From the IMG/VR virus record IMGVR_UViG_3300031539_000007, positions 1 to 64,000 of that record: a DNA stretch of 64,000 nt; one strand, written 5' to 3'. Position numbers and translations under genes: made by a program. How positions within the stretch are numbered: position 1 is the stretch's first letter; each line of letters starts with the position of its first letter. This stretch comes from a virus. Positions 10,631-30,194 of this stretch are shown one piece after another. Below the pieces are notes generated by a model that saw nothing but the letters and a program-made list of their open reading frames with translations, did no database searches and had not been told where the DNA came from.

Positions 10631-10687
10631 TTCCTCGCTCCTTTAATTTGATAGAGGCGGTGCTATTAAACTAAACTAGATTGTTGC

Positions 10688-11086
10688 TTATGCCGCGAAT
10701 CCCACTGCGTAGATCAGCCCCGTGAATAACCCGCTGAAATCTATCGCCCAGAAATCCCCTGGAGCGCCGCTCGCATTCCACGAGCCAAACTGCGCGTCCC
10801 CATACCAGTAGTCAGTCATGTCCGTGCGGTCTGGATAGATGGCGACGTTGCTGGTCGTGGTCGCAACGGCGTATATCAGGTCGAATATCGCGTTGCTCGC
10901 GGTGTCTACCAACGCCGAACCACTGAATGTAGCGCCGTATGCGCCTACGCGCTGGATTTTCGCCTCAGTACCCATCACGGATTCCTCGGCGGTGTCACGG
11001 TCAACGGATAGTTCGAGCGACGTGATGAAGTTCAGTAGAACGCCATCGACATAAAGTGCGCCCTGTAAGCCGGTTAATTGAGCCAT
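10688..11086 (-). CDS. Major tail tube protein
   Basis: 132 aa, strong AAAGGAG RBS, upstream of the chaperone; beta-rich tube-like sequence (LELSVDRDTAEES...FSGSAL...YWYGDA). Confidence 0.8.
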   Translation of the reverse strand: MAQLTGLQGALYVDGVLLNFITSLELSVDRDTAEESVMGTEAKIQRVGAYGATFSGSALVDTASNAIFDLIYAVATTTSNVAIYPDRTDMTDYWYGDAQFGSWNASGAPGDFWAIDFSGLFTGLIYAVGFAA

Positions 11087-11541: not shown

Positions 11542-12360
11542 TCACCTCTCCTCGCATGGCTCAAACCCTAACATGTCGATTGCCTTCTGCGGACTGATAA
11601 GCGAGTCTGCGTCTGACACAACCCTCAGTGGAACGCCATGATATTCTTGCGCACGGAACTCGTAGACGTTGACGCCATTAGGAACATACTTATCTATAAT
11701 ATTGAACGGCTCGTACCAGAACTCGCGCTCTGACTCAACGGCCAACCTGATGGCTTGTGCGCAATACTCAGGGTTGCAGTTCGCCCAGAAGCAGCCTCGG
11801 CGATAGTCTGAGTGCGGCACGCTTCTCCAGTCGAAGTCGCCTGGGTATTGTTGCCGCTTGTAGTTCGCCGGGGCAAGACGTAGCGCAACGGTTTGCATCA
11901 TTTTGTTTGTCCCGTAGTATGCGAGTATCTGTTCTGCCATTACCTTAGAGAACGGGTAATGCTTGATGCCACCACGGGAACGCCCCTGCGCCATATTGGG
12001 GTGCTTCTCGTCAATGGGTAGGTAGTCGGGGAACAACATCCCGTCAATGTCGCATCCGTAATATGCCGTGGAACTAGAATATACCATGCGCTTGACGCCC
12101 GCATTGTATGCGGCTTCTGCAACATTGAGTGTGCCCAGCACATTGACATCAAAGAAGTCTCTGAACGGCCTGGCGTTTGGGTGCGGTATGGCGGCGAGAT
12201 GCACTGCCACATCAACGCTACTCATCTTTGAGTAGAGCTTGTCTGTGTCAAGAATGTCGTCGCCGTTTGTGATGTCGTAGTTTATAATCTCGTGTTCTGC
12301 AAGCTCTGCAACTGCCAGCCTGCCAATTTTCCCGCTACCGCCAGTTACTAAGATTCGCAT
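11542..12360 (-). CDS. NAD-dependent nucleotide-sugar epimerase/dehydratase (extended SDR)
   Basis: ILVTGGSGKIG, VHLAA, NVLGTLNV, YSSS and YPFSK (YxxxK) motifs. Confidence 0.92.
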   Translation of the reverse strand: MRILVTGGSGKIGRLAVAELAEHEIINYDITNGDDILDTDKLYSKMSSVDVAVHLAAIPHPNARPFRDFFDVNVLGTLNVAEAAYNAGVKRMVYSSSTAYYGCDIDGMLFPDYLPIDEKHPNMAQGRSRGGIKHYPFSKVMAEQILAYYGTNKMMQTVALRLAPANYKRQQYPGDFDWRSVPHSDYRRGCFWANCNPEYCAQAIRLAVESEREFWYEPFNIIDKYVPNGVNVYEFRAQEYHGVPLRVVSDADSLISPQKAIDMLGFEPCEER

Positions 12361-13382
12361 TGTTTCATAACCTTTTTCGCTCGCTCAATATACGAATGCG
12401 GTTTAACCATCTCCCGCAGCGTATCGCAGTAATCGGCGCGCCGTTCTGGTTTGTCAACCCAGTAGCGTAGCAACTCGGTTAGCTCTTCTGGCGATGTGAA
12501 TGTCGGCACCAAGTCGCCAAACATTTCCTCGATCTCTTCGCGGTATTCAGAGATCAGGAACCCGCCACACGCTAACGCTTCATAGACTCGTGGCGATGCG
12601 CTTTCGGACTCAGGGATGCGCATCGCGCCCTCGTAGTCAATGGATGTACGGTTCAGATTCAAGCATATCTTCGCGCCGTTGTATAATAGCGCAGCTTGGG
12701 AGTTGGCGATACTGGTGTCTTTGTAATACTTCGCCAGAACATGATCGTGGTCGATGGGGTAATGTCCGTACATCACGAAGTCGAGGTCGCCCCAGTCAAC
12801 CTGCTCTAGCATCTCTACGCGCTCAGGGAACCCGCTGCCAATGAACACAACGTCGTGGCGCATATTCTGTGGCACGAATACAGGGAAGTGTGTCTCGGTA
12901 CTATAGGCTGTAGGGAGATATGGAAGTTCTAGCTTGCGCGCCACGGCCCGCTCGTTTGTATACACAAAATCGTTGTAATCAGTCAGGAATCCGAGCGTCC
13001 TGTCTTGGTATGGCGACTCCGTACCGATCACCACAGATTTCATGCCGGTTACGTGCAACCTTCTGATCCATTCCCATGCCTTCCTGTGGAGGGCCGTACC
13101 ATCAATTACAATGAGAATGTCAGGGTTTGATTTCATCACGTTGAGAATAACATCCATCGACGCCGATATGATTACATCTTCGTCCTCGTATGTTGCGTTA
13201 TAGTCCCCTTCGATTAGCCCCTTGAATCTGTAACTCTCGTTCCAGTAGCGGTATACTTGGTGATACGGGATTTCGTCAACCACATAGCCAAGTGTTCTGA
13301 GTGCGTAGACATATCCTTTCGCCACATCAAAATTCGAGACAGCAGTTGGGGGGAAGGCCATACAGATTTTCGGTTTTTGCAT
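12348..13382 (-). CDS. GT-B glycosyltransferase, CgeB / Glyco_trans_1_2-like
   Basis: DVVFIGS..PER, LYNGAKICLN and SPRVYEALACGGFLISE motifs. Confidence 0.88.
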   Translation of the reverse strand: MQKPKICMAFPPTAVSNFDVAKGYVYALRTLGYVVDEIPYHQVYRYWNESYRFKGLIEGDYNATYEDEDVIISASMDVILNVMKSNPDILIVIDGTALHRKAWEWIRRLHVTGMKSVVIGTESPYQDRTLGFLTDYNDFVYTNERAVARKLELPYLPTAYSTETHFPVFVPQNMRHDVVFIGSGFPERVEMLEQVDWGDLDFVMYGHYPIDHDHVLAKYYKDTSIANSQAALLYNGAKICLNLNRTSIDYEGAMRIPESESASPRVYEALACGGFLISEYREEIEEMFGDLVPTFTSPEELTELLRYWVDKPERRADYCDTLREMVKPHSYIERAKKVMKQCES

Positions 13383-13384
13383 TT

Positions 13385-14182
13385 CTATTCCTTGCTGGAT
13401 AACATGTACTGTGGCTCGTATGGTGTGCCATACTCAGGACAGAAGCCCCACTTATCCATAAACACCCAGCGGTTGTGACTGCGCTCTTTCAACCACTGCA
13501 TAAAATCTCCCTTGCTTTTTTGGCGTCTCTCGACAGCCCTGTCGCCGTGGTTTTGGTGAACTACACGAGTGTCTAGGTTGAAAACAAATTTACAGCCAGC
13601 GAGGTGGGCTTGGTATGCGAAATCACAATCCTCAAATCCCCAGCACGAATTATACCGCTCGTCGTGTCTCAGCGTTTTAGCCACACTCATCGGCAGGCTG
13701 AAGCTGTGCCCGCTCCCATATCGCCAGCGAGAATGTATTGGCAGATGGCGCGGATTCGAGATGCGCCCCCAGAACTTGTCTTCTTCATCTAGTTCGCCAC
13801 TTGTCAATGCCCCCTGCACACGGTTGAGCACGTACCACGGCCCGTCATCACGCGCGTGCCGCTGGATGTGCGACTCAATCCAGTTCGGTGGGTAGAGCAC
13901 GTCATCCTGTGTGCCGATGTAGACGCTGCCGGTAGCAGCATCCAGCCCCATATTGTTTGCCGAGGCTCTTGCGGGGTAGGCTTCGCGCAGGGGTTCTTGG
14001 ATGATAATCATCTCGAATGGGGGCGCTTGTGTTGCTAGGAAGGCACGGGTCTCATCGCCAGGATAGCCAACGACGATCAGAAATTCAAAGTCGTTGTTGG
14101 TTTGTTCTAGGAGCGTGGCGAAAGACTTCTTGAAATAAGGTAGCTTGGCGTCTACAGCGACATCAATGACGGATGGCCTCAT
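13385..14182 (-). CDS. GT-A glycosyltransferase (family 2-like)
   Basis: ASANNMGL, TQDD (DxD-like), DERYNSCWGFEDCDF and VVHQNH motifs. Confidence 0.85.
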   Translation of the reverse strand: MRPSVIDVAVDAKLPYFKKSFATLLEQTNNDFEFLIVVGYPGDETRAFLATQAPPFEMIIIQEPLREAYPARASANNMGLDAATGSVYIGTQDDVLYPPNWIESHIQRHARDDGPWYVLNRVQGALTSGELDEEDKFWGRISNPRHLPIHSRWRYGSGHSFSLPMSVAKTLRHDERYNSCWGFEDCDFAYQAHLAGCKFVFNLDTRVVHQNHGDRAVERRQKSKGDFMQWLKERSHNRWVFMDKWGFCPEYGTPYEPQYMLSSKE

Positions 14183-14412
14183 AATCCATCCGCTCCTGGT
14201 GGTTTCACAACACCTGCTATTTCTTCGACGTGTACAATCTGCCCTGTGTCACCAGTGTAATCTGACAGTAACCCATAAAGTCTTCCGCGATTGGCTATGT
14301 AATGTTCGGCACAATCGCCCGAATATGCTCTCATCACAGAAAACGCATACTTCGTTTGGTTGTTGCCGCTTAAAACAGTAACCAGTAGATTTATTCTGCT
14401 TGAGTCAAACAA
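14179..14412 (-). CDS. Hypothetical protein
   Basis: 77 aa, overlaps both neighbours in the operon. Confidence 0.55.
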   Translation of the reverse strand: MFDSSRINLLVTVLSGNNQTKYAFSVMRAYSGDCAEHYIANRGRLYGLLSDYTGDTGQIVHVEEIAGVVKPPGADGL

Positions 14413-15041
14413 TCGTAGTCCCCTTTCATCAAAGCGAGCGCAACTTTCAGCGCTTCCTTGATGTCTGTATTTCTAAGCTGGGTGCTCGCGTCAAGTACAT
14501 ACGGTACTGACGCATATTCTACCGTTCTCCCTGCTTTGATGGCAAGCCCTAGTAGTTCCATGTTTGTGGCGTGCCCATTGCTTTTAAGATACGGTAATAG
14601 CCCGATGACGCTCTTGAGATTGTAGGTGCGGTACCCATGGGTGGCGTCGCGAATCAACTCATGTGTGAGTAGAGATAGCGTCGCCGCTCCTGCAAGAGAG
14701 AGTATAGCACGAATCCCCAACTTGTCAAATTCCCTTGCTCGTACCAGGATGTCTGCGCTAAACTCAATGTCGAGATACTGCGGGTTGCATGTGCCAACGT
14801 CCATCACCGTCGCGTGGGTATAGCCAAGGCACGACGCAATATTCAGCCCTGCTTTTAGGGCATTGCCATACCCGCGTTTGTCTTTTGAGTAATCCACATG
14901 CTGTGCGAACCATTGCGCCATGCCAACGCTGCCGTCGTCGCCGTCTATCACGCAAACAATTTGCTCGCCGACAATAGAGCGCAACAGTTTTTCGAGATTG
15001 GCGCGCTCTTTGTAACTCAGAACAACTACGCACTTATTCAT
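14391..15041 (-). CDS. GT-A glycosyltransferase, polyprenol-phosphate mannose synthase (DPM1)-like
   Basis: SYKERANL, IDGDDGS, RGYGNALKAG, VMDVG and IRDATHGYR motifs. Confidence 0.8.
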   Translation of the reverse strand: MNKCVVVLSYKERANLEKLLRSIVGEQIVCVIDGDDGSVGMAQWFAQHVDYSKDKRGYGNALKAGLNIASCLGYTHATVMDVGTCNPQYLDIEFSADILVRAREFDKLGIRAILSLAGAATLSLLTHELIRDATHGYRTYNLKSVIGLLPYLKSNGHATNMELLGLAIKAGRTVEYASVPYVLDASTQLRNTDIKEALKVALALMKGDYDCLTQAE

Positions 15042-15489
15042 TGAGGGTTATCGCGTCCAGCTTCACCACCTGGTACACTAGCTCGCGCATCATAAAGTAT
15101 GGGCCTGACCCATTGGCTGTCCCGACGTATTGTGGCGCGCTTGCGGAAATCACCTTAGCGCCTTCGGCGGTGCTATTGAGACGGTGGTAGCCATCAAGTA
15201 GCTCGCGTATCTCTTTTACATCAGCGCGCAGGTTCGCTTGTGTCTCAGCGTCGTAAGTGTATTTGTGATATACTCGTACCAGGAATCCGTAGGTTGTCCT
15301 GGCTGCGTAGCCCATATAACCCGTGTCTGTAGGGCTAGATAGCTGCCCTTCTTCCAGGATTACCGCACGGGCAACACCGGCGTCTAGTGGTTTCGTGTCT
15401 ACGATTGATACATTCGTCGAGTCGTAGTTTGCCAGACCAACTACAAGAGCCGCTATTGCATCTAGTAATGCAGTCTCATCGTATGCCAT
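15034..15489 (-). CDS. Putative tail terminator / completion protein
   Basis: 151 aa, follows the gp10-like neck gene; call is from position and size. Confidence 0.55.
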   Translation of the reverse strand: MAYDETALLDAIAALVVGLANYDSTNVSIVDTKPLDAGVARAVILEEGQLSSPTDTGYMGYAARTTYGFLVRVYHKYTYDAETQANLRADVKEIRELLDGYHRLNSTAEGAKVISASAPQYVGTANGSGPYFMMRELVYQVVKLDAITLNE

Positions 15490-16031
15490 TAGTTTGCTAA
15501 CTCCTTATCTATTGCCTCAGCGATGTTCTCTGTAGCTCTGTCGAGCGTTGCGTCTGCTGCTGGACTAGACAGTGTTCTTTCAGGGAACGGGAAATCAGAT
15601 GAACCGTGAATCTTGATTTGCCAAGCAGATGTTCCGCCTGGATATTCTTGATCGGGCCATACGCCAGCAATCCGCCTTTGTAGGATATATGGGCTTCCAC
15701 CTTTCATTGCAGTCCATGCTTTCAAGCGCGCAATAGGCACCCACCTGGTTTTCGCGCCCTTCCAGACGCCCCATATCTTTCCCTCTTCGACGTTTCCGCT
15801 CGGAACATTCGGGCCGATCTCTACCCCAAGATTATCTGGGTACACCTCATAGCCCACAGAATCTTGTAGCTGCCCCTCGAACCTGAACTCGTTGATGATG
15901 CTCTTCTCAATAGCCACAAACTCTCCGCCGATATGCGTGAGCTGTTCGTGCTGTATCGCGGGAAGCTTGGCAACCGCCTTGATGATTACACCAATGATAT
16001 TGTCTAGTTCGCTAGTATCGAAAGTGAACAT
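15489..16031 (-). CDS. Neck protein, HK97 gp10-like
   Basis: 180 aa; GQLQDSV and WVPIARLKAW motifs; neck position. Confidence 0.6.
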   Translation of the reverse strand: MFTFDTSELDNIIGVIIKAVAKLPAIQHEQLTHIGGEFVAIEKSIINEFRFEGQLQDSVGYEVYPDNLGVEIGPNVPSGNVEEGKIWGVWKGAKTRWVPIARLKAWTAMKGGSPYILQRRIAGVWPDQEYPGGTSAWQIKIHGSSDFPFPERTLSSPAADATLDRATENIAEAIDKELAN

Positions 16032-16035
16032 CTAT

Positions 16036-17034
16036 TTATTTCCCCCATTCTAGGCCAAGCGGCGTCAGTGTCGTTGGTAACAGTCGTGCGTCCACCAGAA
16101 ATCCACACCACCACGTTAATCCGCCACCCCACCACGACACAAACCATGCGGCTGAGTCGTAGCCGGGATTTGCGTCGCTTTCATACCACACTTTGAAAGG
16201 AATCATCACGTTGTCACGGATAGCCACCCACCCAGCCGCGTCAAACGGTTCAAATCGCTGGCACAGTGGGCCTGCTCCGACTTCGGTTATCCAGACGGGT
16301 CGATTGCCAAGTCCAAGTCCAACGTGATAGTTTTGATACCAGTGATCTAGTGCGGCTATTAGTTCAGGCATCCCCCATTCGCTACCGCATGGGGCAGACC
16401 AACATGGGTAAGCGTGGATATGGACGCCATTAACTGTATACAGCTTGCCGGTTGCAGACAGCCTGCTTACAAAGCGCGTCCACCAGCTACGGCTGCCAGC
16501 ACTGCTCAGCCCCGCGATACCGCCGACATAAACGAAGGCTTGTGGGTCGTGACTTTTAATGAGCGTGTAAACCTCAGCGTAACGGTCGGCGGTTTGCTCT
16601 GGTGTCAGCGTGAGATAATACCCACACGAGTCGGGGGTGCCACTGAAATCAGGTTCATTCAGCACCAGCCACGTGTGTCGATCACGTAGCGTGTCAGCCT
16701 TCGCTGCCGCAATGATTAGCGGGAGATTGACGGTGAGATAAGCGTCGTTTAAGCACCATATCATACGCACAAAACGTTCGCCAACCACCGGAGCGCCGAC
16801 TGACCATCCGTAGTACCAGTCAATATCTATTGTAAACGGAGCGCCGCCAACGCCATAGTCCATCGGGGTTTTGTAGCCACGATAAATCTGTGGCAGATAT
16901 ACCACCGACGGCGCGGGCGGCTCTGGTAGCGGTGATGTTTGCTTAAATATAATACATCCGGCTAATACCAGAACCAACACAAGAAAAAGCCCAGCACGTA
17001 AACTCACATAGCCAGCACCGCGAGCAAACGACAC
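16036..17034 (-). CDS. Clan GH-A glycoside hydrolase (GH128 / Glyco_hydro_cc-like), probable lipoprotein
   Basis: Hydrophobic N-terminus with LAGC lipobox; WYYGW, VLNEPD, HIHAY and PVWITE motifs. Confidence 0.8.
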   Translation of the reverse strand: MSFARGAGYVSLRAGLFLVLVLVLAGCIIFKQTSPLPEPPAPSVVYLPQIYRGYKTPMDYGVGGAPFTIDIDWYYGWSVGAPVVGERFVRMIWCLNDAYLTVNLPLIIAAAKADTLRDRHTWLVLNEPDFSGTPDSCGYYLTLTPEQTADRYAEVYTLIKSHDPQAFVYVGGIAGLSSAGSRSWWTRFVSRLSATGKLYTVNGVHIHAYPCWSAPCGSEWGMPELIAALDHWYQNYHVGLGLGNRPVWITEVGAGPLCQRFEPFDAAGWVAIRDNVMIPFKVWYESDANPGYDSAAWFVSWWGGGLTWWCGFLVDARLLPTTLTPLGLEWGK

Positions 17035-18036
17035 CTAATGGCTCCACATCCCAGTTGAGAATATCGGCTGTACTAGGCTCGTATCGTCTTTCCGTTCATC
17101 GCGCTCAGAGCTACTGATTTGCCCTGATGTTAGCGCGCCCGCGCCGGTGGCGTCTGCCCCATCCTGCGCGCCTCTTACGGCATCTTTCAACGCCCCGGTA
17201 GTGACATCTTTTTGTAATGCGTAGCACAATGCCCTGGCTGCACCAGCGCGCGTGTCGCTTTCTTGCGCCTTGAACCCCGCTGTGCGTTGTGTCATTTCAA
17301 CGTTCATAACGACACAATAATTAGCCCCCATCTTTACCATGCTTTGTGCCGCGCTTGCCGTGAGCGGCACCGTAATACTCGCCGCCGATAGCCATCCGTC
17401 TATCATCTGTGATACGGTGTCTTCAAAGTCCATTACATCTGTAGCTGTTGGGGTTGATGTGTGAGTGTATTTTCCATTATCAGTAAGATGCCTAGTCAGG
17501 GACTCTATCTCTCTGATATTAGAATAGATCGTAGCCCGTGTACCGCTGTAAGCCTGGAACGGGAAGTCTGTCGCTGTGGCTATCGCCGTCCATGCAGCAT
17601 TGAACGTTGAGCCAGCACCATTAAGGTAGTGCGGGTTGTCTTGGTCTGCACCTATCGCGACATAGTTAGTGGAGTCGGCTGTATACCCTCCGCCAGAGCG
17701 AATGACCAGGTGATATTGTACCGATGGCAATAACTGCGGGCGGCTATCAATGTCAAAGTCGAACGCATTCATCCCTGCCGAGATTGCGCTTGCGGCTATT
17801 GTCCCGGACGTACCATTGTCAATCGCCGTTCCGCTTGGCACACTGCTTGTATCGCCCTGAATCTGTACGTACAGATAGCCACCCGGTGTTCCGGTAAGAC
17901 TCGCGTACACATAGACACGTCCGACAGAACATGCCCGTTTGACTTTGAACCCCTGGGCAAGTTGGTTGTTCGCCCCGGAAGACGCCAGCGTGATGTCTTC
18001 CCCGTAATTTGTAGAAGCATATTCGGCGAGTAACAT
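17035..18036 (-). CDS. Head-tail adaptor with an extra N-terminal beta-sandwich domain
   Basis: C-terminal half (YSNIREIE...TPTATDV...IDGWL...ITVPLT) resembles Mu gp36 / HK97 gp6-type connectors; N-terminal LAQGFKV domain is additional. Confidence 0.6.
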   Translation of the reverse strand: MLLAEYASTNYGEDITLASSGANNQLAQGFKVKRACSVGRVYVYASLTGTPGGYLYVQIQGDTSSVPSGTAIDNGTSGTIAASAISAGMNAFDFDIDSRPQLLPSVQYHLVIRSGGGYTADSTNYVAIGADQDNPHYLNGAGSTFNAAWTAIATATDFPFQAYSGTRATIYSNIREIESLTRHLTDNGKYTHTSTPTATDVMDFEDTVSQMIDGWLSAASITVPLTASAAQSMVKMGANYCVVMNVEMTQRTAGFKAQESDTRAGAARALCYALQKDVTTGALKDAVRGAQDGADATGAGALTSGQISSSERDERKDDTSLVQPIFSTGMWSH

Positions 18037-18344
18037 TAGCGTTGCCTCACTTTGATTGTAATTGTGCGTTGGTCTGTACGGCTTGCAGTTGTGACAATTT
18101 CACACACAACATCATAGTCGTTAGGCGCATAGCCTCCAGATAGCCACGCAATAACACTGGTGTTTGTGTTTGCCGCCGCGTAACTGGCGACAGTAATCCC
18201 GGCTGGCGCTGTCACTGTGCAAGAACTAATCGTCTCTCCAGTCGCAAGCCAGTCGCTCGCCCCCGTCACGTTTGTAAGTGCCTTCCAGTCCCATGTGTAG
18301 TCCAGCACTGCGCCAGGGTCTTTGTAGAACCATTTATCTGCCAT
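18036..18344 (-). CDS. Virion fibre-adaptor-like small structural protein
   Basis: 102 aa with KDPGAVLDYTWDW...WLSGG...Y.V.C.I.T...RTDQRT signature of a widespread phage family. Confidence 0.7.
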   Translation of the reverse strand: MADKWFYKDPGAVLDYTWDWKALTNVTGASDWLATGETISSCTVTAPAGITVASYAAANTNTSVIAWLSGGYAPNDYDVVCEIVTTASRTDQRTITIKVRQR

Positions 18345-20004
18345 TCAATACCTCACTAAATCGACCTTCTGTGACGCCCCACCCAGGGACGCTACCCGAT
18401 TCTGCCCATCCGCGTGTGTAACGCTGGTTGCGGAATTCTTCGGGATGCCAGCGCGTCTTCGTCAAGTTCCCGCTGTGCCGGATGTCAACGTTTGGCTGCT
18501 CGGACATCCATACCTCTGACTTGTAATCATCTACTCGTTCGGCGCGATTGTGTGTCCCTGGCTCGAACCCCATTCTACGGGTGAACCCATTCTCTTCAAC
18601 AATCGCCACTCGTTTTCTGTAATGCTCTAATAGCAGGTCTCTGTAAGCGCATAGCCCTGAAGTAGAAGAGGCGTAGTGGAAAAGCGCGTGCCCTGTTTCG
18701 GAGTCAACCTTCCAAGAGTTCTGGTTGTAATAGAACAAGTCGCTCTTCTCTGGAACGAAGTCGAAGTGCGACGGGTGATAGAGCACATCGTGCTCCGCGA
18801 AGAAAAGAATGTCTGCGCCAGACGCCTCGACGCCCGCAAGAATCTGCTTGAACATCGTCAGATAGCCGCGCTCGGCATCAATAACAATATTCCTATCGCC
18901 GAAGTCTAGCGGTTCCAGCGAGACGCTTATGATTGGCAACCCACTCTTTAGCAACTGCTTTTGGCACGCCAGCATAATACCAGCGTCTAGCCGATTGTCA
19001 GTATAATATACTATACCCTTTTTTGCACTATTTGAAACCTTAACCACGCCGCCCTCTTTCGCTTTCAAGCCAGTCAAGTCTTCGTCAGTCCACCCGCGCA
19101 CCGGCCAGAATTTCTCTACAAGCCAAGACAGTGGGTGTATTTGCTTGTCCCACTTGTCATTGAAGAATAAGTCGTGAGCTGCCTTCTTAGCGTGTGCAAC
19201 TTGGTTCCCTGAGATTGGATATGGGAATCCGAAGTCCTTGCCCTGAGTCCTGAACATGTGCGCATACCAGGTCTTGTGGTTCACCATCACCGCCCCGCCG
19301 GACAGCCAAAACTTCGTTGCGACTTCTATGCCTTGCGATCCCCAGCTCCCAAAGCTCTCGTCGCATACGTTTAGCTCAAAGTATTTATCGCGCGTCAGCA
19401 TAAAGCACGAGCCTTGCAGACTCATCGTTGGGGTGATGTCGCCCTTGCCTTCTGGCCGCTTAGAGAACTCTTTGAAATACTGGAAATGCGGCTCTGGGTC
19501 AAAGCAATACGATACGCTTTGCGGGCTTGGTTTCCCAATCCACTTCATATCGCGCCGCGCATCACCACCGCACTTAGGGCATACCGGGCGCAGAATGTCT
19601 CCGCCTGGGGTTGGCCCCTGATAGGTGCGCCACTCGCAGCTATCGCAAGCCCAATCAAATGCGTGCAGGTTGCGCATTATCGGAACCATCACCCAATCAT
19701 CGCGCATCTCTGCCAGCATCTTAACATCGAAGCCCTCGTCGAACGCGCAGTGGGCGTCACACTTCATCAAGTATTTTGATTGGGCAATGCGCGCCGCTTC
19801 GTTGGTCGCCGCTCTCTGTCCAACACTTTCTGGATGATAGATGAGACTTACTCGCGAGCTATCGTTGACTGGTGGTTCTGCCCACTCACCGTCTAGCACA
19901 GCAATAATATCGGTGTCGCCCCTGATATTCACAAGGATGTCTTCGATTGTGCGAGCCAGGAACATTTCGTTGCGCGCAGGAATCAAGATGGTTAGGTCTG
20001 GCAT
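18334..20004 (-). CDS. Two-domain glycosyltransferase: ppGalNAc-T (GT27)-like N-terminal domain plus a second GT-A-like domain
   Basis: IPARNE, KCDAHC and WGSQGIEVATKFWLSGG...WYAHMFR; C-terminal KGIVYYTDN...FFAEHDVLYHPSHF. Confidence 0.85.
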   Translation of the reverse strand: MPDLTILIPARNEMFLARTIEDILVNIRGDTDIIAVLDGEWAEPPVNDSSRVSLIYHPESVGQRAATNEAARIAQSKYLMKCDAHCAFDEGFDVKMLAEMRDDWVMVPIMRNLHAFDWACDSCEWRTYQGPTPGGDILRPVCPKCGGDARRDMKWIGKPSPQSVSYCFDPEPHFQYFKEFSKRPEGKGDITPTMSLQGSCFMLTRDKYFELNVCDESFGSWGSQGIEVATKFWLSGGAVMVNHKTWYAHMFRTQGKDFGFPYPISGNQVAHAKKAAHDLFFNDKWDKQIHPLSWLVEKFWPVRGWTDEDLTGLKAKEGGVVKVSNSAKKGIVYYTDNRLDAGIMLACQKQLLKSGLPIISVSLEPLDFGDRNIVIDAERGYLTMFKQILAGVEASGADILFFAEHDVLYHPSHFDFVPEKSDLFYYNQNSWKVDSETGHALFHYASSTSGLCAYRDLLLEHYRKRVAIVEENGFTRRMGFEPGTHNRAERVDDYKSEVWMSEQPNVDIRHSGNLTKTRWHPEEFRNQRYTRGWAESGSVPGWGVTEGRFSEVLNGR

Positions 20005-20594
20005 TAGTCCTGTTCCTCTAACGGATCAACAAAGCTAGGCGCTCTAATCCAGAACCAGGTCGGGGTTCTCTCGTCGGTCAAGAACCATTTGTTAATACCG
20101 TGTTCACGAGTGTACGTATCAACAGCGGGGACAATTCCACCTCTCCGAAAACGGTAATAGTCATGCCCTGACACAACCCCGCCATACCTGACCTTCTTTG
20201 ACCACCAAATGATGTCGGTCATCACGAAATCGAAGGTGTGGTCTCCGTCTATGTACACAAAGTCCAGGGACTCATCAGGTATATCCATCACCGCCTCGAA
20301 GCTGGTCTCGCGAATGACGGTCGCGTTGTGCGGGGCTAGTCGTCTTTGAGTAGATTGATAACGTGATTCGCCTCTGAGTTTCCAGTACCACGGGTCTACA
20401 CATAATAGATGCAAGTCTGGAATAACCTTGAACATATACTCAGAGAAACGCCCACGGTCAACTCCGATCTCTGCGCCCTTAGTCAATCCGTACTCGCCAA
20501 AATATTGTACGAGTCGCTTACGTGTCAATGTGCGAATTCGCACTGGTGATATTTGTTGGGCCTGTTCGTACCACTTGTCCAGTAGTTCTTTCAC
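20004..20594 (-). CDS. Class I SAM-dependent methyltransferase (Methyltransf_24-like), probably a glycan O-methyltransferase
   Basis: GAEIGVDRG, CVDPW, DFVYIDGDH and GGVVSGHDY motifs. Confidence 0.9.
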   Translation of the reverse strand: MKELLDKWYEQAQQISPVRIRTLTRKRLVQYFGEYGLTKGAEIGVDRGRFSEYMFKVIPDLHLLCVDPWYWKLRGESRYQSTQRRLAPHNATVIRETSFEAVMDIPDESLDFVYIDGDHTFDFVMTDIIWWSKKVRYGGVVSGHDYYRFRRGGIVPAVDTYTREHGINKWFLTDERTPTWFWIRAPSFVDPLEEQD

Positions 20595-22207
20595 AGTAGT
20601 TCCTTGTATAGCGGGGCGACGTTATCAATGTGGTAGTCCTCCGCTCTGTCAATGAGTCTTTGCGCATCGAACCCGTCGCGGAGTCTCGCGATAACATCCA
20701 CAAGCTCTGCTATTGTTCTTGTGGGCCAATAGTAGCCATCAACTTCTTGGTAAGCTATTTCTGGATAGCCAACTGTTGGGATGCCGAATGACATTGCGTT
20801 GACGATCTTGAGCGGATTCTTTAGCGGCCTGTCCTGCATCCGCCATACAATCTGCACGTCAATGTCTTTATAGAACTCAACGATCTCATCTGGATTTCTA
20901 AAATGGCGCAACCATCTAAACTCGATACCCATATCCGCCAAAGCTTTCTCTAGCTCTTCGGCATCACACTGAATCGCCCCTTGCCCACCGACAACACCAG
21001 CAACCTTTATCTCGTCGCGTGTGCGGATAATGCGTTCAAAATTACAATGGTGCTGTGGTATAAAAACTACATCGTCTCTTCCAAGCTGCTGTTTCAGGTA
21101 TTCGTATCCTGTCTGGCTTGATGCAATCACGCCGCATTCTGGGTGCTCTTTAAGCCACGGTATTCTGCGTGGTTCATCTAGTACATCGAGATAGTGCTTC
21201 CCTGGCAGGGCGATGTCGTCAGGCTGTTGTTTAACCCAAATGTGTATATCGAAATCGTAGCCCCATCCAGTCTGTGGTTTTAGTCTCGCCATAAAGCGCT
21301 CTGCCATTTGCCTGCCGCGAATCTGTCCGCTTCCACCACGGCGACGATGAAACACAAAGCGCACCGCTTCTTCGCCCCACGTTGGCACAGGCCAGAATCT
21401 ATTGATTAACCAGCGGATGTCTCTGTCTTGTTTGCCCCACAGTTTGCCGTCCATCCAGCGGTTAGAGTATTCTGCGCCTTTGTCTAATACGGAGTGCGCG
21501 AGAGGCCACCCGCGCCCGTACTTGCGCCCCTTGTGAAGATGAGCATACCACGTGTTCTTGTTCCTGACAACGCGACCGCCAGACAGCCAGCACTTCAACC
21601 CTATTTCTTGGAACTCGAAGCAGAAGTGCCCGTAGTTCACATCGTCAAGCAACTCCAGTTCGTGGAAGTAGTCTCTGTGCATAAACCAGCACGAGCCTTG
21701 CGCGCTCATCAAATCGTCTATGAGTACATCTTTAAGTGTAGGGTCGTTCTGCTTCTCGCGCCATTCTCTACCGTGCAGGCTCGGCCCGCCGAAATCGTTC
21801 TTGTCTGACGGGGAACACAGGAACATATACTCGATGGGCTTCTTTTGTTTTGGTTGCCAGTTTTCTGCGTCCAGGCTGTAGCGCGTTGGGACAGCAACCC
21901 AGTTCGATTCCAGGTCTGCGATTAGCTTTACGTCGAATCCTTCATCGAACATACAATGTGCATCGCACTTCATTATATACTTTCCTCTGGAAATTGCAAC
22001 TCCGGCGTTAATTGCGCCGCGCATTCCTCGCGGTGTCGTGAAGTGTATATAATGTACGCGCTTGTCTTCAATAATCTCGTCGGGCCAGTACCCTTCAAGA
22101 ACCACAACGACCTCGATGTCACCCCCCGCCTTGGCGAGAATGTCTTTAACCGTGGGGTTAAGGAATTGCTCGTTTCTGGCTGGGATGACTACGCTTGTAA
22201 CTGTCAT
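20591..22207 (-). CDS. Two-domain glycosyltransferase: ppGalNAc-T (GT27)-like N-terminal domain plus a GT-B (GT4-like) domain
   Basis: IPARNE, KCDAHC and [14 protein letters not shown]...WYAHLHK; C-terminal [17 protein letters not shown]. Confidence 0.85.
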
Positions 22208-25200
22208 GACGGATCGCTCCTTTCTATTGGTGCTACTCTTGTCTCTATAGCTATTGTGTATACCCTAGATTCGGAATCTATTGGTGCTACTCTTGTCTCC
22301 GCCGGTACTGAGTAAGTCCGTTCCTCTGTTGGCTCCGTTGGCACGGACGGGCTTGGAGATGCCGAAGAAGACGCAGACCCACTGGCGCTCGCGGACGCCG
22401 ACTCTGACGGGCTTGGACTGCGGCTTGGCGAAGATGACGGGCTTCTGCTAGGACTTGACGATGCGCTTGATGACGCGCTGGCACTTGGGCTTAACGAAAG
22501 GCTCTCGGAGGCCGACTCACTGGCGCTCGCGCTTGACGATGGCGATGGCGATGCTGACGCAGAAGCCGACTCAGAGCCGGAGGCCGACGCCGACTCAGAC
22601 GCCGACTTTGACGCGCTGGCACTTGCGCTTTCTGAAAATCCGGCGCTTGGCGACGGGCTGGCTGATGCGCTGGCGCTCCCTGACGCACTGGCAGACTGGC
22701 TCTCTGATGCCGAAGGGGAAAGCGACGCAGACGGCGACAGTGACGCGCTGGCACTGGAGGATGGCGAAGTGCTCGCGGATTCACTCGCGCTGGCCGACGC
22801 GCTCCTGCTGGCGCTACTTGACGCGCTCTCCGACACCGACGCGGACGACGACGGGGATGGGCTGGCCGATGCGCTGGCGCTCTCAGAAGAACTGGCAGAA
22901 CTTGATTTTGAGGCCGATGCACTGGCAGATATAGACGCCGATGCCGACGCTGACTCAGAAATAGACTCGCTGGCGCTAGAGCTTGCTGAGGGGCTTTGGC
23001 TGGCGGATGTGCTTGCTGATTCCGAAGAAGACTCCGAAGCTGATGTGGATGCGCTCGCGCTGGCGCTTCCCGAAACCCCCGCGCTTGGCGAGGGTGATGC
23101 GGACGCGCTAACTGATTCACTGGCGCTGGCCGACTGACTCTCAGACGCCGATGGCGAAATAGACGCTGACGGAGAAATGCTTGCCGACGTGCTCGCCGAC
23201 TCTGACACACTCTCCGAGGCGCTGGCGCTGGTTGAGGCGCTGGCTGACGGGGATAGCGATGCGCTTCCGCTGGCGCTCGCGCTTATAGATTCAGAAGATG
23301 ATGGCGATTGGCTGGCAGACTCGCTCGCCGATGCCGAAGCACTGGCCGAAGCTGACTCACTCGCTGATTTCGATGCTGACTCTGATACAGACTCGCTGGC
23401 ACTAGCGCTAGAAGAAGGACTCTGGCTGGCTGATTCTGATACGGACTCTGACGCCGACGCTGAAGCGCTGGTCGAGGCGCTGACTGACGCCGACTCCGAA
23501 AAGCCGACGCTCGGAGATGGCGAAGCACTGGCTGAAACAGATTCGCTGGCCGATGCACTCGCGCTCTCTGAGGCTGACGGACTCTGGCTGGCCGATCCAC
23601 TAACGCTGGCGCTCGCTGACTCCGATGCACTAAAACTTGCCGACGTGCTTGCGGATGGCGATTGGCTTGCACTCTCGCTCGCGCTGGCGCTGACACTCTC
23701 TGATGCCGATGGCGATGGTGATGCAGAGGCGCTTGCCGATTCGCTCGCTGATTCCGACCCCGACACGCTGGCGCTCGTTGACGCTGACGGAGATTGTGAG
23801 GCGGATACGCTCTCGCTAGATGATGGGCTTTGACTAGCGCTCTCTGATGCCGACGCGCTAACAGATTCGGACACTGATTCGCTACCGCTGGCACTCGCCG
23901 ATGGCGACAAACTTGCCGAGGGGCTGGCTGATTCGCTGGCACTTTTCGACGCCGATGGCGATAACGACGCACTTGCCGAGGCAGACGCACTAATGCTCTC
24001 CGAAGCGGAGGGCGACGGGGACGCTGATGCGCTGGCGCTTTCTGATACGCTCGCGCTTGACGACGGACTTATGCTCGCGCTTTTTGAGGCTGACCCACTA
24101 GCACTCTCGCTGGCCGATGAAGACACGCTCTCACTGGCTGACGGCGACAGGCTTGCAGACTCGCTGGCACTGGCGCTGGCGCTCTGAGATGCGGATGCGC
24201 TGGCGCTTTTCGATGCGCTGGAGCTCGCCGATCCCGAAGCACTCTCTGAAACTGAGGGGCTGGCCGAGGCTGAGGTTGATGGGCTTAAACTTTGACTTGG
24301 CGATAAACTGGCTGATGGCGAGAGTGAGGGAGAACTGCTCGCCGACGCCGAAATTGATTCAGACGCCGAACTACTCGCTGACCCTGAGACGCTTCCACTG
24401 GCCGATGGCGAGAGCGAGGGCGAGCCGCTTGCCGATGGAGACGGGGAAGCCGAGCCGCTTACTGAGGCGGAGAGCGATTCGCTGGCACTGCTGCTGGCTG
24501 ATGGCGAGAGTGACGCCGACGCACTCCCAATAGTGCGGACTTCTACATCATTGACGTACTGCACTTCGCCAGCGGATGGCGATGGGGAAGCCGAACTACT
24601 CGCTGAAGCCGATACGGACTCGGAAGCCGAGCTGCTGGAACTGGGCGACAAACTCGCCGATGGCGAAAGTGAGGCTGACCCGCTGGCGCTGGGGCTTAAA
24701 CTGGCCGATGGCGAAAGTGAAGACGATTCGCTGGAACTGGGTGACAAACTGGCCGATGGCGAAAGTGAAGGAGACCCGCTGGAACTGGGAGAAAGTGAAG
24801 ACGATTCGCTGGCGCTGGGGCTTAAACTTAACGATTCTGAGGCTGACCCGCTGATGGATGGGGACAATGAGGCCGAACTGCTGGCTGAGGCTGAGGCTGA
24901 CTCCGATGTGGACGCGCTGGCGCTGGGTGATAAGCTTGCCGAACTACTTGCTGAAGCTGATGCCGACTCAGACGCACTGCCGCTGACGCCCTCCGCAAAC
25001 GTAATCGTATTGGCGAACTCTACCCACGGGTTATAAGCAGCAGTATCAGTATTGTTTTCGCCAAGATCGGTTCCAGAGTCGTCACCGATGCCAATCGCTC
25101 CCCGGTGGCGCTGTGAGGACGGGCTGGGATCGCCACCATACCCGATCTCAATTACAATCCTATCGTTCGCATTGGCTTCAACAGAGGATGTGGTAACTGA

Positions 25201-25602
25201 AAACTGTCTGTTGGTCAGCGTACCTACAGTAAGTGCTGCGTCATCCCTGGCTACGGCTAGAACCACCCCCGTAACGCTAGTCCCATCATTTGAAACAACC
25301 CGCACGCCAATTGTAGAGAACAGATTTGCGCCCGTGGCGTATTCGTACATGCGCATCTGGAACTTGAGCGTCTGCGCACTAAGCGTCTGTGCCGTGATTG
25401 GGTCAGATACATACTGTGCAAAACAGATGTCTTGATCTGCGGAACTTCCATCACTGCTGTTGGTGATTTGCGTCGTCGCAGACGCTATCTTGGCGATTAC
25501 TGCCTGGTAGCGTACTAGCGCATAGGAAGCTTCCCAGTCGCCAGATACGGCAGGACTAATCGCCGCCGCGCCAGAGGATGGAAGATAAAAACGAGTCGCC
25601 AT
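22204..25602 (-). CDS. Serine-rich repeat virion protein (1132 aa)
   Basis: Likely start MATRFYLP at 25602 (TAATG overlap with the upstream stop); about 200 aa globular N-domain, then roughly 880 aa of S-X alternation, then a short C-tail with ETRVAPI twice. Confidence 0.88.
22223..22299. repeat. 23-bp direct repeat (TCTATTGGTGCTACTCTTGTCTC x2, 54-bp period) encoding ETRVAPI
   Basis: Copies at 22223-22245 and 22277-22299. Confidence 0.9.
22350..24985 (-). repeat. Low-complexity (Ser-X)n coding repeat
   Basis: [11 protein letters not shown]-type alternation; GCCGATGGCGAAAGTGA recurs at 24656, 24704 and 24752 (48-bp period). Confidence 0.95.
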
Positions 25603-27224
25603 TACAATGTGCTGGTGATTCTTATCTGAGCATAGCCAGCCGATACAAAGCTGCCAATGTAGTTTCCCCACTCCGCGACAGAGCAAGCCCCTGGCGTTGC
25701 GCCGGTGCGATAATCCAGATCAATCGTATCGCCAGCAACATAGACGTTGTATGTTATCTCAATGTTTACCGCTCCGGTTTCCACGATCTCTGAAATCATG
25801 TACTCGCTGGTTTCTAGCGCAACTCGTTCTATGTCTACCTCGCCGGGGTTTTCAATTGTCCCGGTGCCAATCCAATTCCCGCTAAAATCTCTAACGTTGG
25901 CCTCGGCGACATCTGTGTCATGGCCCCAAACGACATCGGTTGAGACTGCCGCCGACGGAGAAGCGGAGGGACTGGCGCTGGCGCTGGACGAAGGGGAAAG
26001 CGAGCTTGAACTGCTGGCTGATTCCGAAGCTGATCTGCTGGCGCTTGGGGATAATGAGGCACTGCCAGAAGCGCTCGCGCTCGCGCTCCCCGATGCTGAT
26101 GGCGATAGGCTTGCCGACCCCGAAGCTGATTGGCTGGCACTTTCCGATGCCGACGCCGACGCGCTCTCCGAGGTTGATGGAGATTGCGAGGCGCTGACGC
26201 TCTCTGACGCAGATGGCGACTGTGACGCGCTCTCGGAAATACTCTCGGATGCAGACTCGCTAATTGACTCTGATGCGCTTGAAGACGCGGATGGCGATAG
26301 GCTCCCACTGGCGCTGGCAGACTCCGATGCTGACCCGCTCGCGCTTGGTGATAACGATGCTGATTCAGAAGCGGATTGGCTGGCGCTCGCGGAGGCTGAG
26401 GGCGACTGTGATGCACTTCCTGAAGCAGACTTGCTCGCAGAACTAGACGCGCTAGGGCTTGGTGACGCAGAAGATGAAGCTGATGGAGAAAGCGACACTG
26501 ACTCGCTTGCGCTTGGGCTTGAACTCCCCGACGCGCTGGATGAACCAGCCGCGCCAGCCAGCCAAAACCCCGTCGCTGGAACTGGATACCATACCTTCGG
26601 CGGATGATCTGCCCACGTCGGTGTGTTGTAGGCCGTCATCGTGTACCCACCGAACAAATCCTGGTCAGTGCGTAGTAAGGGCAAGTAAAAAACGAGAGCA
26701 TCAGGTCTAATTTGCCATGGGGGGATACCTGTGGCTAACATTGCTACTTGTGCGTCACTCAGCGCAATATCCCAGATTGCGGCTTCTGCGATTCTCCCGG
26801 ACATGTATCCTTCGGGGGCTGTCCCACCAACACGTCCGATTTGTAGCTGTGAGATACCTGTCGGGGCAGAATTAGACGAATCGGTGCCTTTATATCCACC
26901 GTTTTTGTAGACAGCACGGCTGTCTTCAGCCGCCCATACACCGCAGGCATGATGCCATGCATCTGTCCCAAACGTTTCGGGATAGGTTGTAGCGCGGGGG
27001 TAACCAGTCGCATACGTTACTGCTTCGATGCAGCCGTCTTCGTCGCCAGCCAGCGCCAGACGGAATGAATTGGCGCTTGTTGCAGGGTTGTCTAATGTCA
27101 TCAGTGCTTGATACGAGTCTGCGCTATCCGAGTGATACCAGCATGCCATAGTGAGCGGTACAGCTATGACTGGAGCAGAACCAGATAAATATTGGCTACT
27201 GGCATTATCAAACAGCCTTGCCAT
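25602..27224 (-). CDS. LamG / ConA-like lectin domain plus Ser-rich repeat protein (540 aa)
   Basis: TMACW, WHHACGV and [21 protein letters not shown] are LamG-like motifs; about 200 aa S-X tract; about 115 aa C-domain. Confidence 0.85.
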
Positions 27225-28378: not shown

Positions 28379-28735
28379 CTATGCCTTTACAGTAACTATC
28401 AACGTCCTCTCCGCGAGTTGGTTTACACCAGACGCGGCGCTCTCACTCCACAGCTTCACGAAGCGCGACCCCGCTACCCCCGCTGGCGCTGCGAAGGACG
28501 CGCTGATTGCCGGGCCGTCTATCTCTAGCAGTGCAGCAGCGGCGTCGTACAATGGGGTGAATGTTCCGCCAGAGGTCGTGCTTACGTGGAAGCCAACGTC
28601 GGCGGCAGTCCACTCTGCGGGGAACGTTACTATCATCGTTGAGTAAAACGAGAAATCGAATGCGTCAGACAATGCTGCCCCATTCGCAATCGTTGCTGTA
28701 ATTACGTCCGACCGCCTGAACATTCTACCGCTCAT
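28379..28735 (-). CDS. Putative virion accessory protein, tandem paralog B
   Basis: 118 aa; paralog of 28010-28366. Confidence 0.75.
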   Translation of the reverse strand: MSGRMFRRSDVITATIANGAALSDAFDFSFYSTMIVTFPAEWTAADVGFHVSTTSGGTFTPLYDAAAALLEIDGPAISASFAAPAGVAGSRFVKLWSESAASGVNQLAERTLIVTVKA

Positions 28736-29231: not shown

Positions 29232-29493
29232 TTTTCACCGCCGTTTTGTAGATCGCAATGCTCAATAGCACTAACAGATTAAGAACGCCCAGCCAAGCAT
29301 TAAAGTGGTTCAGTTCCGCATTACTGAGATTACCAAAGTAACAGTACCCATAGAAAACCAGCACCAAAATTGCGTATGCAATCGGCCCGTAGGTCAGATA
29401 TACCCAGCTACGGCTTGTCCGTGCTAGTATGTAGTAGGCCACGATGACCGCCACGGATAATATGATTCGTGCATAGCGCGTAATCTCTATCAT
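29218..29493 (-). CDS. Small 3-TM membrane protein
   Basis: 91 aa, three hydrophobic segments. Confidence 0.6.
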   Translation of the reverse strand: MIEITRYARIILSVAVIVAYYILARTSRSWVYLTYGPIAYAILVLVFYGYCYFGNLSNAELNHFNAWLGVLNLLVLLSIAIYKTAVKNAVR

Positions 29494-30194
29494 TGTTTAA
29501 CTTGCCACTCGCTTACTTTCATAAAGTCCTCAGTCGTTACCATTGCGGTTTTCAAGTGCCCGATGTGTAACGCCAAATCAATTGCTGGCCGATACCCGCA
29601 GTCTTGTGCCAGCTTGCAGAAGTACGTGTCCTCGCCTAGCTCTTCCCCGTGTCCACCAAACAAGTCGTCTTGCTTGGCAAACATTGTTTCCAGTACGTCC
29701 CTACGAATCAGAGTGCAGCCAAACCCAATCACGTCGAAGTCCACTACCGTATTGCCTAGTAGGTCGTAGCAGACAGGACTATTAACAACGGGGGCATTGT
29801 GCTCGACAAGCCAATCGCGCACGAATTGTGATTTGGAGTAGGTCTGCGTGCGCTCCACGTCATTCCACGCAAAGGCTACGGCTTCAGGGGCTTCGCGGCG
29901 CTTGAAGTACAACGCCCCGACGATGGGCAACTCATGTTTGAGTAGCCGCCATACGGTTTCTTGATGCAGCACGTTGTCAGAATCTACGAACAGTAAGTGG
30001 GTTGCGTCAGACTCCACAAAGTGTTTGGCAATCCCCTGGCGTCCCTGACGCACGTAGGTTGGCGTGTCGTAAGTCTCGGCTATCTTGATCCCGCGTGCCG
30101 CCAGCACGATCTGTGATTCCTTCACGGAGTCGGTGTGTTGCCAGAAGGCGAAACGCTCGCGGCAGGTTGCGTACATCACTTTCAATTGTCCCAT
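29490..30194 (-). CDS. GT-A glycosyltransferase (family 2-like)
   Basis: Start at ATG 30194 after AAGGAG; ATHLLFVDSD, IGFGCTLIRRDVLE, GEDTYFC and IGH motifs. Confidence 0.85.
   Translation of the reverse strand: MGQLKVMYATCRERFAFWQHTDSVKESQIVLAARGIKIAETYDTPTYVRQGRQGIAKHFVESDATHLLFVDSDNVLHQETVWRLLKHELPIVGALYFKRREAPEAVAFAWNDVERTQTYSKSQFVRDWLVEHNAPVVNSPVCYDLLGNTVVDFDVIGFGCTLIRRDVLETMFAKQDDLFGGHGEELGEDTYFCKLAQDCGYRPAIDLALHIGHLKTAMVTTEDFMKVSEWQVKQ

Follow-up and report, generated by a model that had tools for sequence, protein, structure and literature searches.

We analysed the first 64 kb (hereafter, the window) of a 113,043-base IMG/VR virus record (IMGVR_UViG_3300031539_000007; classed as linear and 82% complete). 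On the minus strand of the window, two open reading frames (ORFs) each encode a two-domain glycosyltransferase (GT), which we call A-type and B-type. Polypeptide GalNAc-transferases (ppGalNAc-Ts; family GT27) start mucin-type O-glycans on serine or threonine, and they carry a DxH motif, a WGGENxE...W.CGG motif (Gal/GalNAc-T motif), a distal GHVFR histidine and a ricin lectin domain. A first-pass annotation made from the letters of the DNA had read both ORFs as paralogs with GT27 motifs, each fused to a different second GT domain. The two genes lie in a cassette with two serine-repeat, i.e., (Ser-X)n, proteins, a methyltransferase and a fibre-adaptor-like protein. The cassette is listed below in the direction of transcription.

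25602–27224, minus strand: 540-residue protein with a LamG-type N-terminal domain (PF13385, E 2.4e-16), ~209 residues of (Ser-X)n (25932–26558) and a C-terminal domain; second proposed acceptor
22204–25602, minus strand: 1132-residue (Ser-X)n protein from the ATG at 25602; proposed acceptor; repeat at 22330–24999, ~890 residues with 460 serines
20591–22207, minus strand: B-type bifunctional glycosyltransferase, 538 residues; GT27-like GT-A N-domain and weakly GT-B-like C-domain
21353–22207, minus strand: B-type N-domain, residues 1–285; D82-x-H84, E198/E201, WLSGG and H223
20594–21340, minus strand: B-type C-domain, ~residues 290–538; weakly GT-B/group-1-like
20004–20594, minus strand: S-adenosylmethionine-dependent methyltransferase, 196 residues, Methyltransf_24 (PF13578, E 3.8e-17)
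18334–20004, minus strand: A-type bifunctional glycosyltransferase, 556 residues; GT27-like GT-A N-domain and unclassified GT-A C-domain
19057–20004, minus strand: A-type N-domain, residues 1–316; GT27-like by fold and sequence
19750–19758, minus strand: A-type DxH metal motif D83-A-H85; aligned by HMMER with DAH of GalNAc-T1
19477–19695, minus strand: A-type beta-rich insert with four cysteines (C120, C123, C142 and C145); putative zinc ribbon, A-type only
19249–19344, minus strand: A-type WGSQGIE...WLSGG...AHMFR, then the low-confidence loop 253–263; counterpart of the Gal/GalNAc-T motif and distal histidine
18337–19029, minus strand: A-type C-domain, residues 326–556; modelled as a divergent GT-A fold; invariant E404-x-D406 and H413
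18036–18344, minus strand: fibre-tail adaptor-like protein, 102 residues (PF23148 Gp77, podophage GP4 fibre-tail adaptor family, E 3.2e-20); overlaps the end of the A-type gene

GT27-like N-terminal domains

The two GT ORFs were paralogous; their first ~310 residues aligned at 33% identity (E 5e-52), and the shared blocks quoted in the first-pass annotation ([35 protein letters not shown]; K.WLSGG.V..N..TWYAH) all fell within this N-domain alignment. Pfam returned only PF00535 (Glycos_transf_2, a broad GT-A superfamily) for the N-domains, above the 23.3-bit gathering cut-off for both at 46.1 and 69.3 bits (A-type, E 6.6e-12), and PF02709 was not listed at E up to 1. When the A-type protein was searched with phmmer against all PDB sequences, 16 matches were obtained, of which 15 were named ppGalNAc-Ts and one was the Toxoplasma GalNAc-T3 chain 8uhv (best E 9.5e-6); the alignment spanned WGGENLE...WQCGG...GHVFR and continued into the next loop. 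With a profile of 40 A-type homologues, the PDB match to GalNAc-T1 improved to E 3e-8 and the DxH region was aligned as well. A profile of 26 B-type homologues matched TgGalNAc-T3 (6s22) in the PDB over positions 4–256, i.e., the whole domain, at E 6.4e-8.

The fold pointed the same way. The AlphaFold2 model of the A-type protein had a predicted local distance difference test (pLDDT) score of 89, and nearly all the matches listed by Foldseek were GT27 chains at E ~1e-14 (GalNAc-T2, E 1.3e-14). We then compared the model with all representatives using VIA-align, an aligner independent of Foldseek. Mouse GalNAc-T1 (8v9q) was aligned at Z 25.5 with a root-mean-square deviation (rmsd) of 2.7 Å over 264 residues (model range 2–311), and Toxoplasma GalNAc-T3 at Z 23.9, whereas the best GT2-type chains (Leptospira GT, WrtF, TarS and SpsA) reached Z ≤20.0 over 182–240 residues. 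Polysaccharide GT2s had been named beforehand as the contrary outcome; the closest structural matches were ppGalNAc-Ts instead. The resemblance to GT27 is far beyond chance, and the closest solved relatives of both N-domains are eukaryotic ppGalNAc-Ts; that is, the N-domains are GT27-like and not generic GT2. Other resources added little: PHROGs held no family for either GT, an NCBIfam scan gave only far-sub-threshold matches to MftF and PgaC, and a fold search of BFVD returned only uncharacterised GT-A proteins of uncultured phages and giant viruses.

The A-type motifs occurred in the order reported by the first-pass annotation (D83-A-H85-C, W221-G-S-Q-G-I-E227, W233-L-S-G-G237 and A248-H-M-F-R252), and HMMER paired them residue for residue with DAHCE, WGGENLE, WQCGG and GHVFR of GalNAc-T1. 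Fourteen of these positions were invariant in the 40 A-type homologues (D83, H85, W221, G222, Q224, G225, E227, W233, S235, G236, G237, H249, F251 and R252). The B-type protein keeps D82-x-H84, WLSGG and the distal His223, with FCFEFQE at the WGGENxE position and AHLHK at that of GHVFR. The DxH motif and distal histidine (A-type D83/H85/H249; B-type D82/H84/H223) were invariant within each family and were aligned by HMMER with the GalNAc-T1 motifs. In addition, residues 253–263, directly after H-x-F-R, were the only disordered stretch of the A-type N-domain model (pLDDT <50), at the position where GalNAc-Ts carry the mobile catalytic loop. Judging by the aligned motifs, both N-domains retain the metal triad of DxH and distal His, a portion of the Gal/GalNAc-T motif and the subsequent mobile loop.

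Both proteins have changes in the Gal/GalNAc-T motif. In the A-type, the W, G, last E and GG are kept and E-N is replaced by Q-G, which is invariant in the family; in the B-type, both glutamates are kept and WGG is lost. The Glu-Asn pair of WGGENxE contacts GalNAc in GalNAc-T2. Since this pair is replaced by Q-G, uridine diphosphate GalNAc should not be assumed to be the donor. The four-cysteine insert, whose strands lie at residues 104–176 in the A-type model, was missing from the B-type paralog; C120 and C145 were invariant and C142 nearly so in the 40 A-type homologues.

Second domains, methyltransferase and serine repeats

According to the first-pass annotation, the second GT domain differs between the paralogs and stands where the eukaryotic enzymes have the ricin lectin domain. 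This was borne out for the A-type by a GT-A fold, and for the B-type only weakly, by a sub-threshold GT-B/group-1-like match. A search for the ricin-type lectin domain gave no PF00652 match in either GT.

The A-type C-domain, folded alone with 35 homologues, reached pLDDT 95.7. Its VIA Z scores had a flat top at ~12.8 (CgT/GalT1 of the Fap1 pathway, SpsA and heparosan synthase), and sugar-nucleotidyltransferases scored nearly as high as GT-A transferases. As modelled, the domain has a GT-A fold without a specific family, with E404-x-D406 as its acidic DxD-type motif. It had no match in Pfam or among PDB sequences, apart from a lone profile match to 7b5h (E 0.006) that is probably due to chance, and BLASTP did not support its being a paralog of the GT-like protein at 29490–30245. 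The comparison covered 112 related loci (32 viral and 80 on contigs of metagenome-assembled genomes (MAGs)), of which 59 are ≥15 kb and form the long set. In at least 10 related loci, the C-domain has a gene of its own immediately before the A-type GT gene, and it also occurs in stand-alone viral clusters of ~220 residues; therefore, the fusion in the window records a functional pair. These separate genes encode ~235–270 residues (L024, L026, L093, L094, L100, L101, L106, L111, L023 and L025; mostly at ~10001–10700), and they precede the GT27-like gene, opposite to the order of the two domains in the fusion. One A-type homologue of 692 residues (P0096) carries a GIY-YIG and NUMOD3 homing-endonuclease module at residues 319–454, in frame between its two GT domains.

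The B-type C-domain matched PF13692 (Glyco_trans_1_4) at E 3.9e-5 and 24.4 bits, under the 27-bit cut-off. Eleven of the 26 full-length B-type homologues matched the same model at E 1e-3 or better (best E 3e-6), which weakly suggests a GT-B/group-1-like domain. An hhalign comparison of the B-type family found no kinship with the Glyco_trans_1_2 protein of the window. The fusion with the GT-B-like domain was found in only ~45 homologues; the common B-type form is the N-domain alone (~296 residues) or fused to a methyltransferase (PF13578 or another class I type). Four proteins of 1203–1352 residues (P0256, P0263, P0267 and P0277) contain three or four separate stretches that match the GT27-like domain and may be tandem multi-GT27-like proteins.

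The methyltransferase that had been noted between the two GT genes was recognised by PF13578 at 63.5 bits (gathering cut-off, 26.3 bits); its sole PDB match was weak (6g7d, E 0.011). Fusions of a B-type GT with a methyltransferase in relatives, e.g., P0193, point to a functional link between these enzymes; the enzyme may cap the glycan chain with a methyl group, as the first-pass annotation had proposed.

Both proposed acceptors adjoin the GT genes. The 1132-residue protein consists of an N-domain of ~200 residues followed by ~890 residues with serine at every second position, where X is mostly A, P, E, L, V or G; a single non-repeat island ([15 protein letters not shown]) breaks the repeat. 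Serine codons in the repeat were AGC (123), TCG (108), TCA (85), AGT (62), TCT (48) and TCC (34). All six codons are mixed; thus, the periodicity is kept at the protein level and not by a DNA repeat. The start of this protein is likely the ATG at 25602, which overlaps the upstream stop codon (TAATG); the mechanical ORF (22204–25686, minus strand) begins at a TTG that lies 84 nucleotides within the upstream gene. Comparison of the N-domains showed the two repeat proteins to be unrelated in this part, and the C-terminal domain of the 540-residue protein is conserved in two related loci (L005 and L020). No (Ser-X)n ORFs other than these two were found in the whole 113-kb record.

The cassette genes follow one another closely. 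The stop codon of the 1132-residue gene overlaps the B-type start (ATGA), and the junctions along the chain, from the LamG/(Ser-X)n gene through the 1132-residue gene, the B-type GT and the methyltransferase to the A-type GT, are TAATG, ATGA, GTGA and TAATG, with an 11-nucleotide overlap into the gene for the adaptor-like protein. To judge from these junctions, the repeat proteins and enzymes form a translationally coupled chain. In addition, no hydrophobic segment was found in either GT, the methyltransferase or the repeat proteins, so the GTs do not have a type II membrane topology and any modification must be cytoplasmic and precede assembly. The serine-repeat acceptors suggested by the first-pass annotation are thus present, adjacent and coupled to the GTs.

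Conservation of the cassette and its genomic setting

Relatives of the A-type protein were abundant in metagenomes: thousands of full-length proteins shared 50–70% identity with it, and a search of 1.84 billion representatives with its N-domain gave 656 clusters (50% identity) at E 1e-10 or better. The MAG labels of the related loci were mostly Patescibacteria lineages, with DPANN archaea and 'Gammaproteobacteria' bins in addition. These loci shared almost none of the other window genes. Within the long set, the B-type paralog was present in 55 of 59 loci, the methyltransferase in 51, and a (Ser-X)n ORF, defined by a perfect Ser-alternating window of 60 residues, in 48; the repeat ORFs encoded up to 2,696 residues and were almost always on the same strand. 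All three occurred together in 39 of the 59. The adaptor-like homologue also follows the GT in a related locus (L028).

We built a tree of 90 N-domains to compare the two types. A-type and B-type were separated with 2 label changes, compared with ~30 when the labels were shuffled; this clean split indicates that the duplication is old. Exactly two GT27-like copies were found in 64 of the 112 loci, and loci with at least two copies mostly held one of each type, suggesting different roles and not two parallel initiators. The first-pass annotation had assumed that each protein initiates and then extends a glycan. The data do not support this, and old, separate paralogs with one of each per cassette argue for different jobs.

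The cassette is not confined to phages. In a 455-kb Parcubacteria MAG contig (L072), its neighbours were cellular genes, i.e., LemA, an M48 peptidase, TatC, cohesin/dockerin and Ig-like surface proteins and a ribonucleotide reductase. TatC and the Ig-like, dockerin and cohesin surface proteins flank the cassette at L072:3219-3992 and 15115-19923, and their position beside it suggests that the cellular version of the repeat protein is exported.

Family scans of the ORFs placed the cassette of the window in a tailed-phage late region on the minus strand:

35136–37169, minus strand: portal
32982–34310, minus strand: 442-residue protein, ChaB domain at its N-terminus (E 4e-11); flanked by portal and scaffold; 48% conserved in the related phage G001
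32595–32978, minus strand: scaffold
31609–32580, minus strand: major head protein (phrog_1005, E 1.5e-64)
After the major head protein in the late-region order, minus strand: small head-completion genes
29490–30245, minus strand: 251-residue protein of the head module with a weak glycosyltransferase-family match (phrog_1574, E 1.2e-15; phrog_12406, glycosyltransferase, E 7e-4)
16036–17034, minus strand: GH_cc-like protein with a putative signal anchor (Glyco_hydro_cc-like, E 1.3e-9)
14391–15041, minus strand: GT2-like
13385–14182, minus strand: GT2
12348–13382, minus strand: Glyco_trans_1_2
11542–12360, minus strand: short-chain epimerase/dehydratase (SDR family)
10688–11086, minus strand: major-tail-protein candidate
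5171–9835, minus strand: tape-measure-like protein, 1554 residues

Head genes lie on one side of the cassette and tail genes on the other; therefore, both GT ORFs are inside the virion module. The sugar genes downstream of the cassette (11542–17034) may act on the same glycan. Among them, the GH_cc-like protein has a strongly hydrophobic N-terminus that ends in L-A-G-C and resembles a lipoprotein signal or signal anchor. It is the sole exported-looking protein of the sugar island, and it could be a lysis or depolymerase enzyme instead of a part of fibre glycosylation.

The nearest relative detected via the capsid protein was G001 (L117), a viral record of 119,094 bases (91% complete) whose major capsid protein is 54% identical. 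G001 is syntenic with the window for the head genes, a homologue of 17035–18036, Glyco_trans_1_2, the tail tube and the tape measure. It also keeps a gene like that at 29490–30245, and this protein is probably outside the module because it is conserved in a relative without the cassette. Neither a GT27-like domain nor a (Ser-X)n ORF was found anywhere in the G001 record, and tblastn gave no match to the methyltransferase or the adaptor-like gene. The entire block at ~18.0–28.4 kb of the window had no counterpart, and neither did the two GT2 genes, the epimerase or the GH_cc gene (the last by tblastn). In G001, the homologue of 28379–28735 ends 9 bases before that of 17035–18036 (L117:13986-13995). 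We read the repeat proteins, the GT pair, the methyltransferase and the adaptor-like gene, all of which G001 lacks, as one accessory block that can be gained or lost.

Among 50,697 deposited phage records, megablast of 18–26 kb gave no match and tblastn of both GTs gave none either, even at E 1 for the A-type. The capsid protein, used as a control, found 152 matches in the same records by tblastn, indicating that the absence of the GTs from deposited phages is real at this sensitivity. To date, the family is known only from uncultivated phages and from MAG contigs, the latter mostly labelled Patescibacteria.

Proposed glycosylation of phage fibres and comparison with known systems

We propose that the two GTs and the methyltransferase are the conserved core of an accessory 'glycofibre' module that also includes the two repeat proteins and the adaptor-like protein. 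The repeat serines would be O-glycosylated in the cytoplasm, the sugars methylated and the product mounted on the virion; that is, the phage probably coats its own fibres with sugar. We assign this reading a probability of roughly 0.68. The whole gene chain would be translated together late in infection. A nucleotide sugar would donate the first sugar, which one GT27-like domain would attach to the repeat serines; its paralog and both C-terminal GT domains, perhaps together with the GTs encoded downstream, would add more sugars. The methyltransferase would O-methylate a sugar, and the glycosylated, extended stalks would be mounted on the virion through the adaptor-like protein.

Several points weigh against this proposal. 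Neither a glycan or glycopeptide nor an enzymatic activity has been observed in this family, and adjacency and co-occurrence do not prove an enzyme–substrate relation; approximately one-fifth of the long loci had no repeat ORF within 10 kb. Formal GT27 membership is not established, given 16–20% identity, an altered motif, no PF02709 match, no lectin domain and no membrane anchor. At this identity, with Q-G for E-N in the A-type and no WGG in the B-type, the donor and even the acceptor class could differ. In addition, the common GT-A fold does not separate retaining from inverting chemistry. Finally, the GT-B-like domain could initiate in place of the GT27-like domains, if GtfA of streptococcal serine-rich repeat glycosylation is taken as the model.

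This last point leads to the best of the alternatives, which we consider unlikely. The GT27-like domains might only elongate or branch, with the first sugar placed on serine by another enzyme, e.g., the B-type C-domain (as GtfA, a GT4 enzyme) or a host enzyme. The group-1 GT matches of that domain, the altered Gal/GalNAc-T motif in both paralogs and at least four further GT-like genes in the window agree with this idea. However, the GT-B-like domain is missing from most cassettes, whereas both GT27-like types are near-universal, the paralog accompanying the query type in almost all long loci; the universal parts are therefore better candidates for a universal first step.

Another explanation, which we rate as less likely still, keeps the enzymes and changes the acceptor. 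They would build or modify a glycan elsewhere than on the repeats, for example in a polysaccharide of the host envelope, on a lipid or on a different protein of the virion, e.g., the capsid. Pfam places the domains only in the broad GT2 family, the nearby epimerase, further GTs and glycoside-hydrolase-like protein recall polysaccharide loci, and mycobacteriophage glycans are reported on capsid and tail-tube C-termini (summarised in PMC12619734). Meanwhile, the enzymes have no membrane segments, and no flippase, polymerase or Gtr-type partners were found. They are coupled to the repeat proteins, conserved with them and missing together with them from the nearest detected relative, and serine tracts occur in only two ORFs of the 113-kb record. 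Glycosylation of phage DNA against restriction, suggested by the well-known DNA-modifying phage GTs (reviewed in PMC12619734) and by the label 'DNA methyltransferase' of the PHROG family matched by the methyltransferase, is very improbable, as the genes lie in the virion module and not in the replication module, are coupled to structural proteins, show no hydroxymethyl-pyrimidine pathway beside them and recur among cellular genes (TatC, cohesin/dockerin and LemA) in the Parcubacteria contig.

Mucin-type O-glycosylation initiated by GT27 enzymes is regarded as eukaryotic, and in bacteria, serine-rich repeat glycoproteins depend on GT4 enzymes, which are unrelated. In the present family, both in phages and on MAG contigs mostly labelled Patescibacteria, GT27-like enzymes accompany dedicated stalks of serine repeats. 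Our literature searches found no account, for phages or Patescibacteria, of such a pairing of GT27-like enzymes and (Ser-X)n proteins, and the only phage virion glycosylation met in them concerned short tails on mycobacteriophage capsid and tail-tube proteins. More tentatively, and at a little under even odds, a GT27-like lineage native to phages and ultra-small bacteria may perform true mucin-type initiation, i.e., direct and processive cytoplasmic O-glycosylation of hundreds of (Ser-X)n serines. Phages would then carry a plug-in kit of acceptors, initiating and extending enzymes, methyl tailoring and an adaptor, and the system would be an undescribed prokaryotic counterpart, possibly an evolutionary relative, of animal mucin biosynthesis. 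If the fibre glycosylation that we propose is true, the family would offer soluble enzymes for dense serine glycosylation that can probably be expressed in E. coli, a handle on the surface presentation of uncultivated phages and cells (adhesion, shielding or mimicry) and a data point on the origin of GT27.

We compared the system with four known ones. The E. coli K4 chondroitin polymerase (2z86) and Pasteurella heparosan synthase 2 (8viw) have two GT-A domains per chain, as does the A-type protein, and both were among the fold matches of the full A-type model and of its C-domain. However, whole-chain superposition was poor (rmsd 14–18 Å), and these enzymes polymerise free polysaccharides with domains that are not GT27-like.

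In mycobacteriophages, phage GTs have been proposed to modify the phage's own structural proteins, and the glycans lie on short C-terminal tails of capsid and tail-tube subunits (Freeman et al. 2023, as cited in PMC12619734 and PMC11256854). The proposal of phage-encoded GTs for the phage's own structural proteins is common to both cases, but the acceptors here would be dedicated repeat stalks of 200–890 residues.

Gram-positive serine-rich repeat glycoproteins (GspB, Fap1, SraP and PsrP) are glycosylated by GtfA/GtfB and follow-on GTs, with initiation by the GT4 (GT-B) GtfA–GtfB pair and export via accessory Sec (PMC5207161, PMC7661464). The phage system resembles them in the alternating serines of the substrate (SASESAS-type), in the predicted intracellular glycosylation by several soluble GTs encoded beside the substrate and in the Fap1-pathway GT-A domain (5hea), which was among the fold matches of both A-type domains. 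Unlike these systems, the universal enzymes of the phage are GT27-like GT-A proteins and the carrier is a phage virion module. GtfA/GtfB, SecA2/SecY2/Asp and an LPxTG-anchored serine-rich repeat adhesin were not found among the ORFs scanned in 1.8–37 kb; only the substrate type is alike.

The GT27 ppGalNAc-Ts (GalNAc-T1, 8v9q/1xhb; GalNAc-T2, 2ffu; Toxoplasma GalNAc-T3, 6s22/8uhv) share with the phage enzymes the GT-A fold, the DxH motif with the distal histidine and, with the changes described above, the W-G...E, W.xGG and H.FR block in the same order, followed by a mobile loop. The presumed phage acceptor is a long, Ser-rich repeat containing Pro and Ala, as in mucins. In contrast to the type II Golgi membrane proteins of GT27, the phage proteins are soluble and cytoplasmic, they have a second GT domain in place of the ricin-type lectin domain, and the A-type has the four-cysteine insert. 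Relative to published systems, the cassette is a variant of mucin-type initiation, of serine-rich repeat glycoproteins and of phage virion glycosylation; specific to the window are two Rosetta-stone fusions (A-type with the unclassified GT-A domain, and B-type with the weakly GT-B-like domain), a proposed acceptor with an 890-residue repeat and the clean absence of the block in a related phage.

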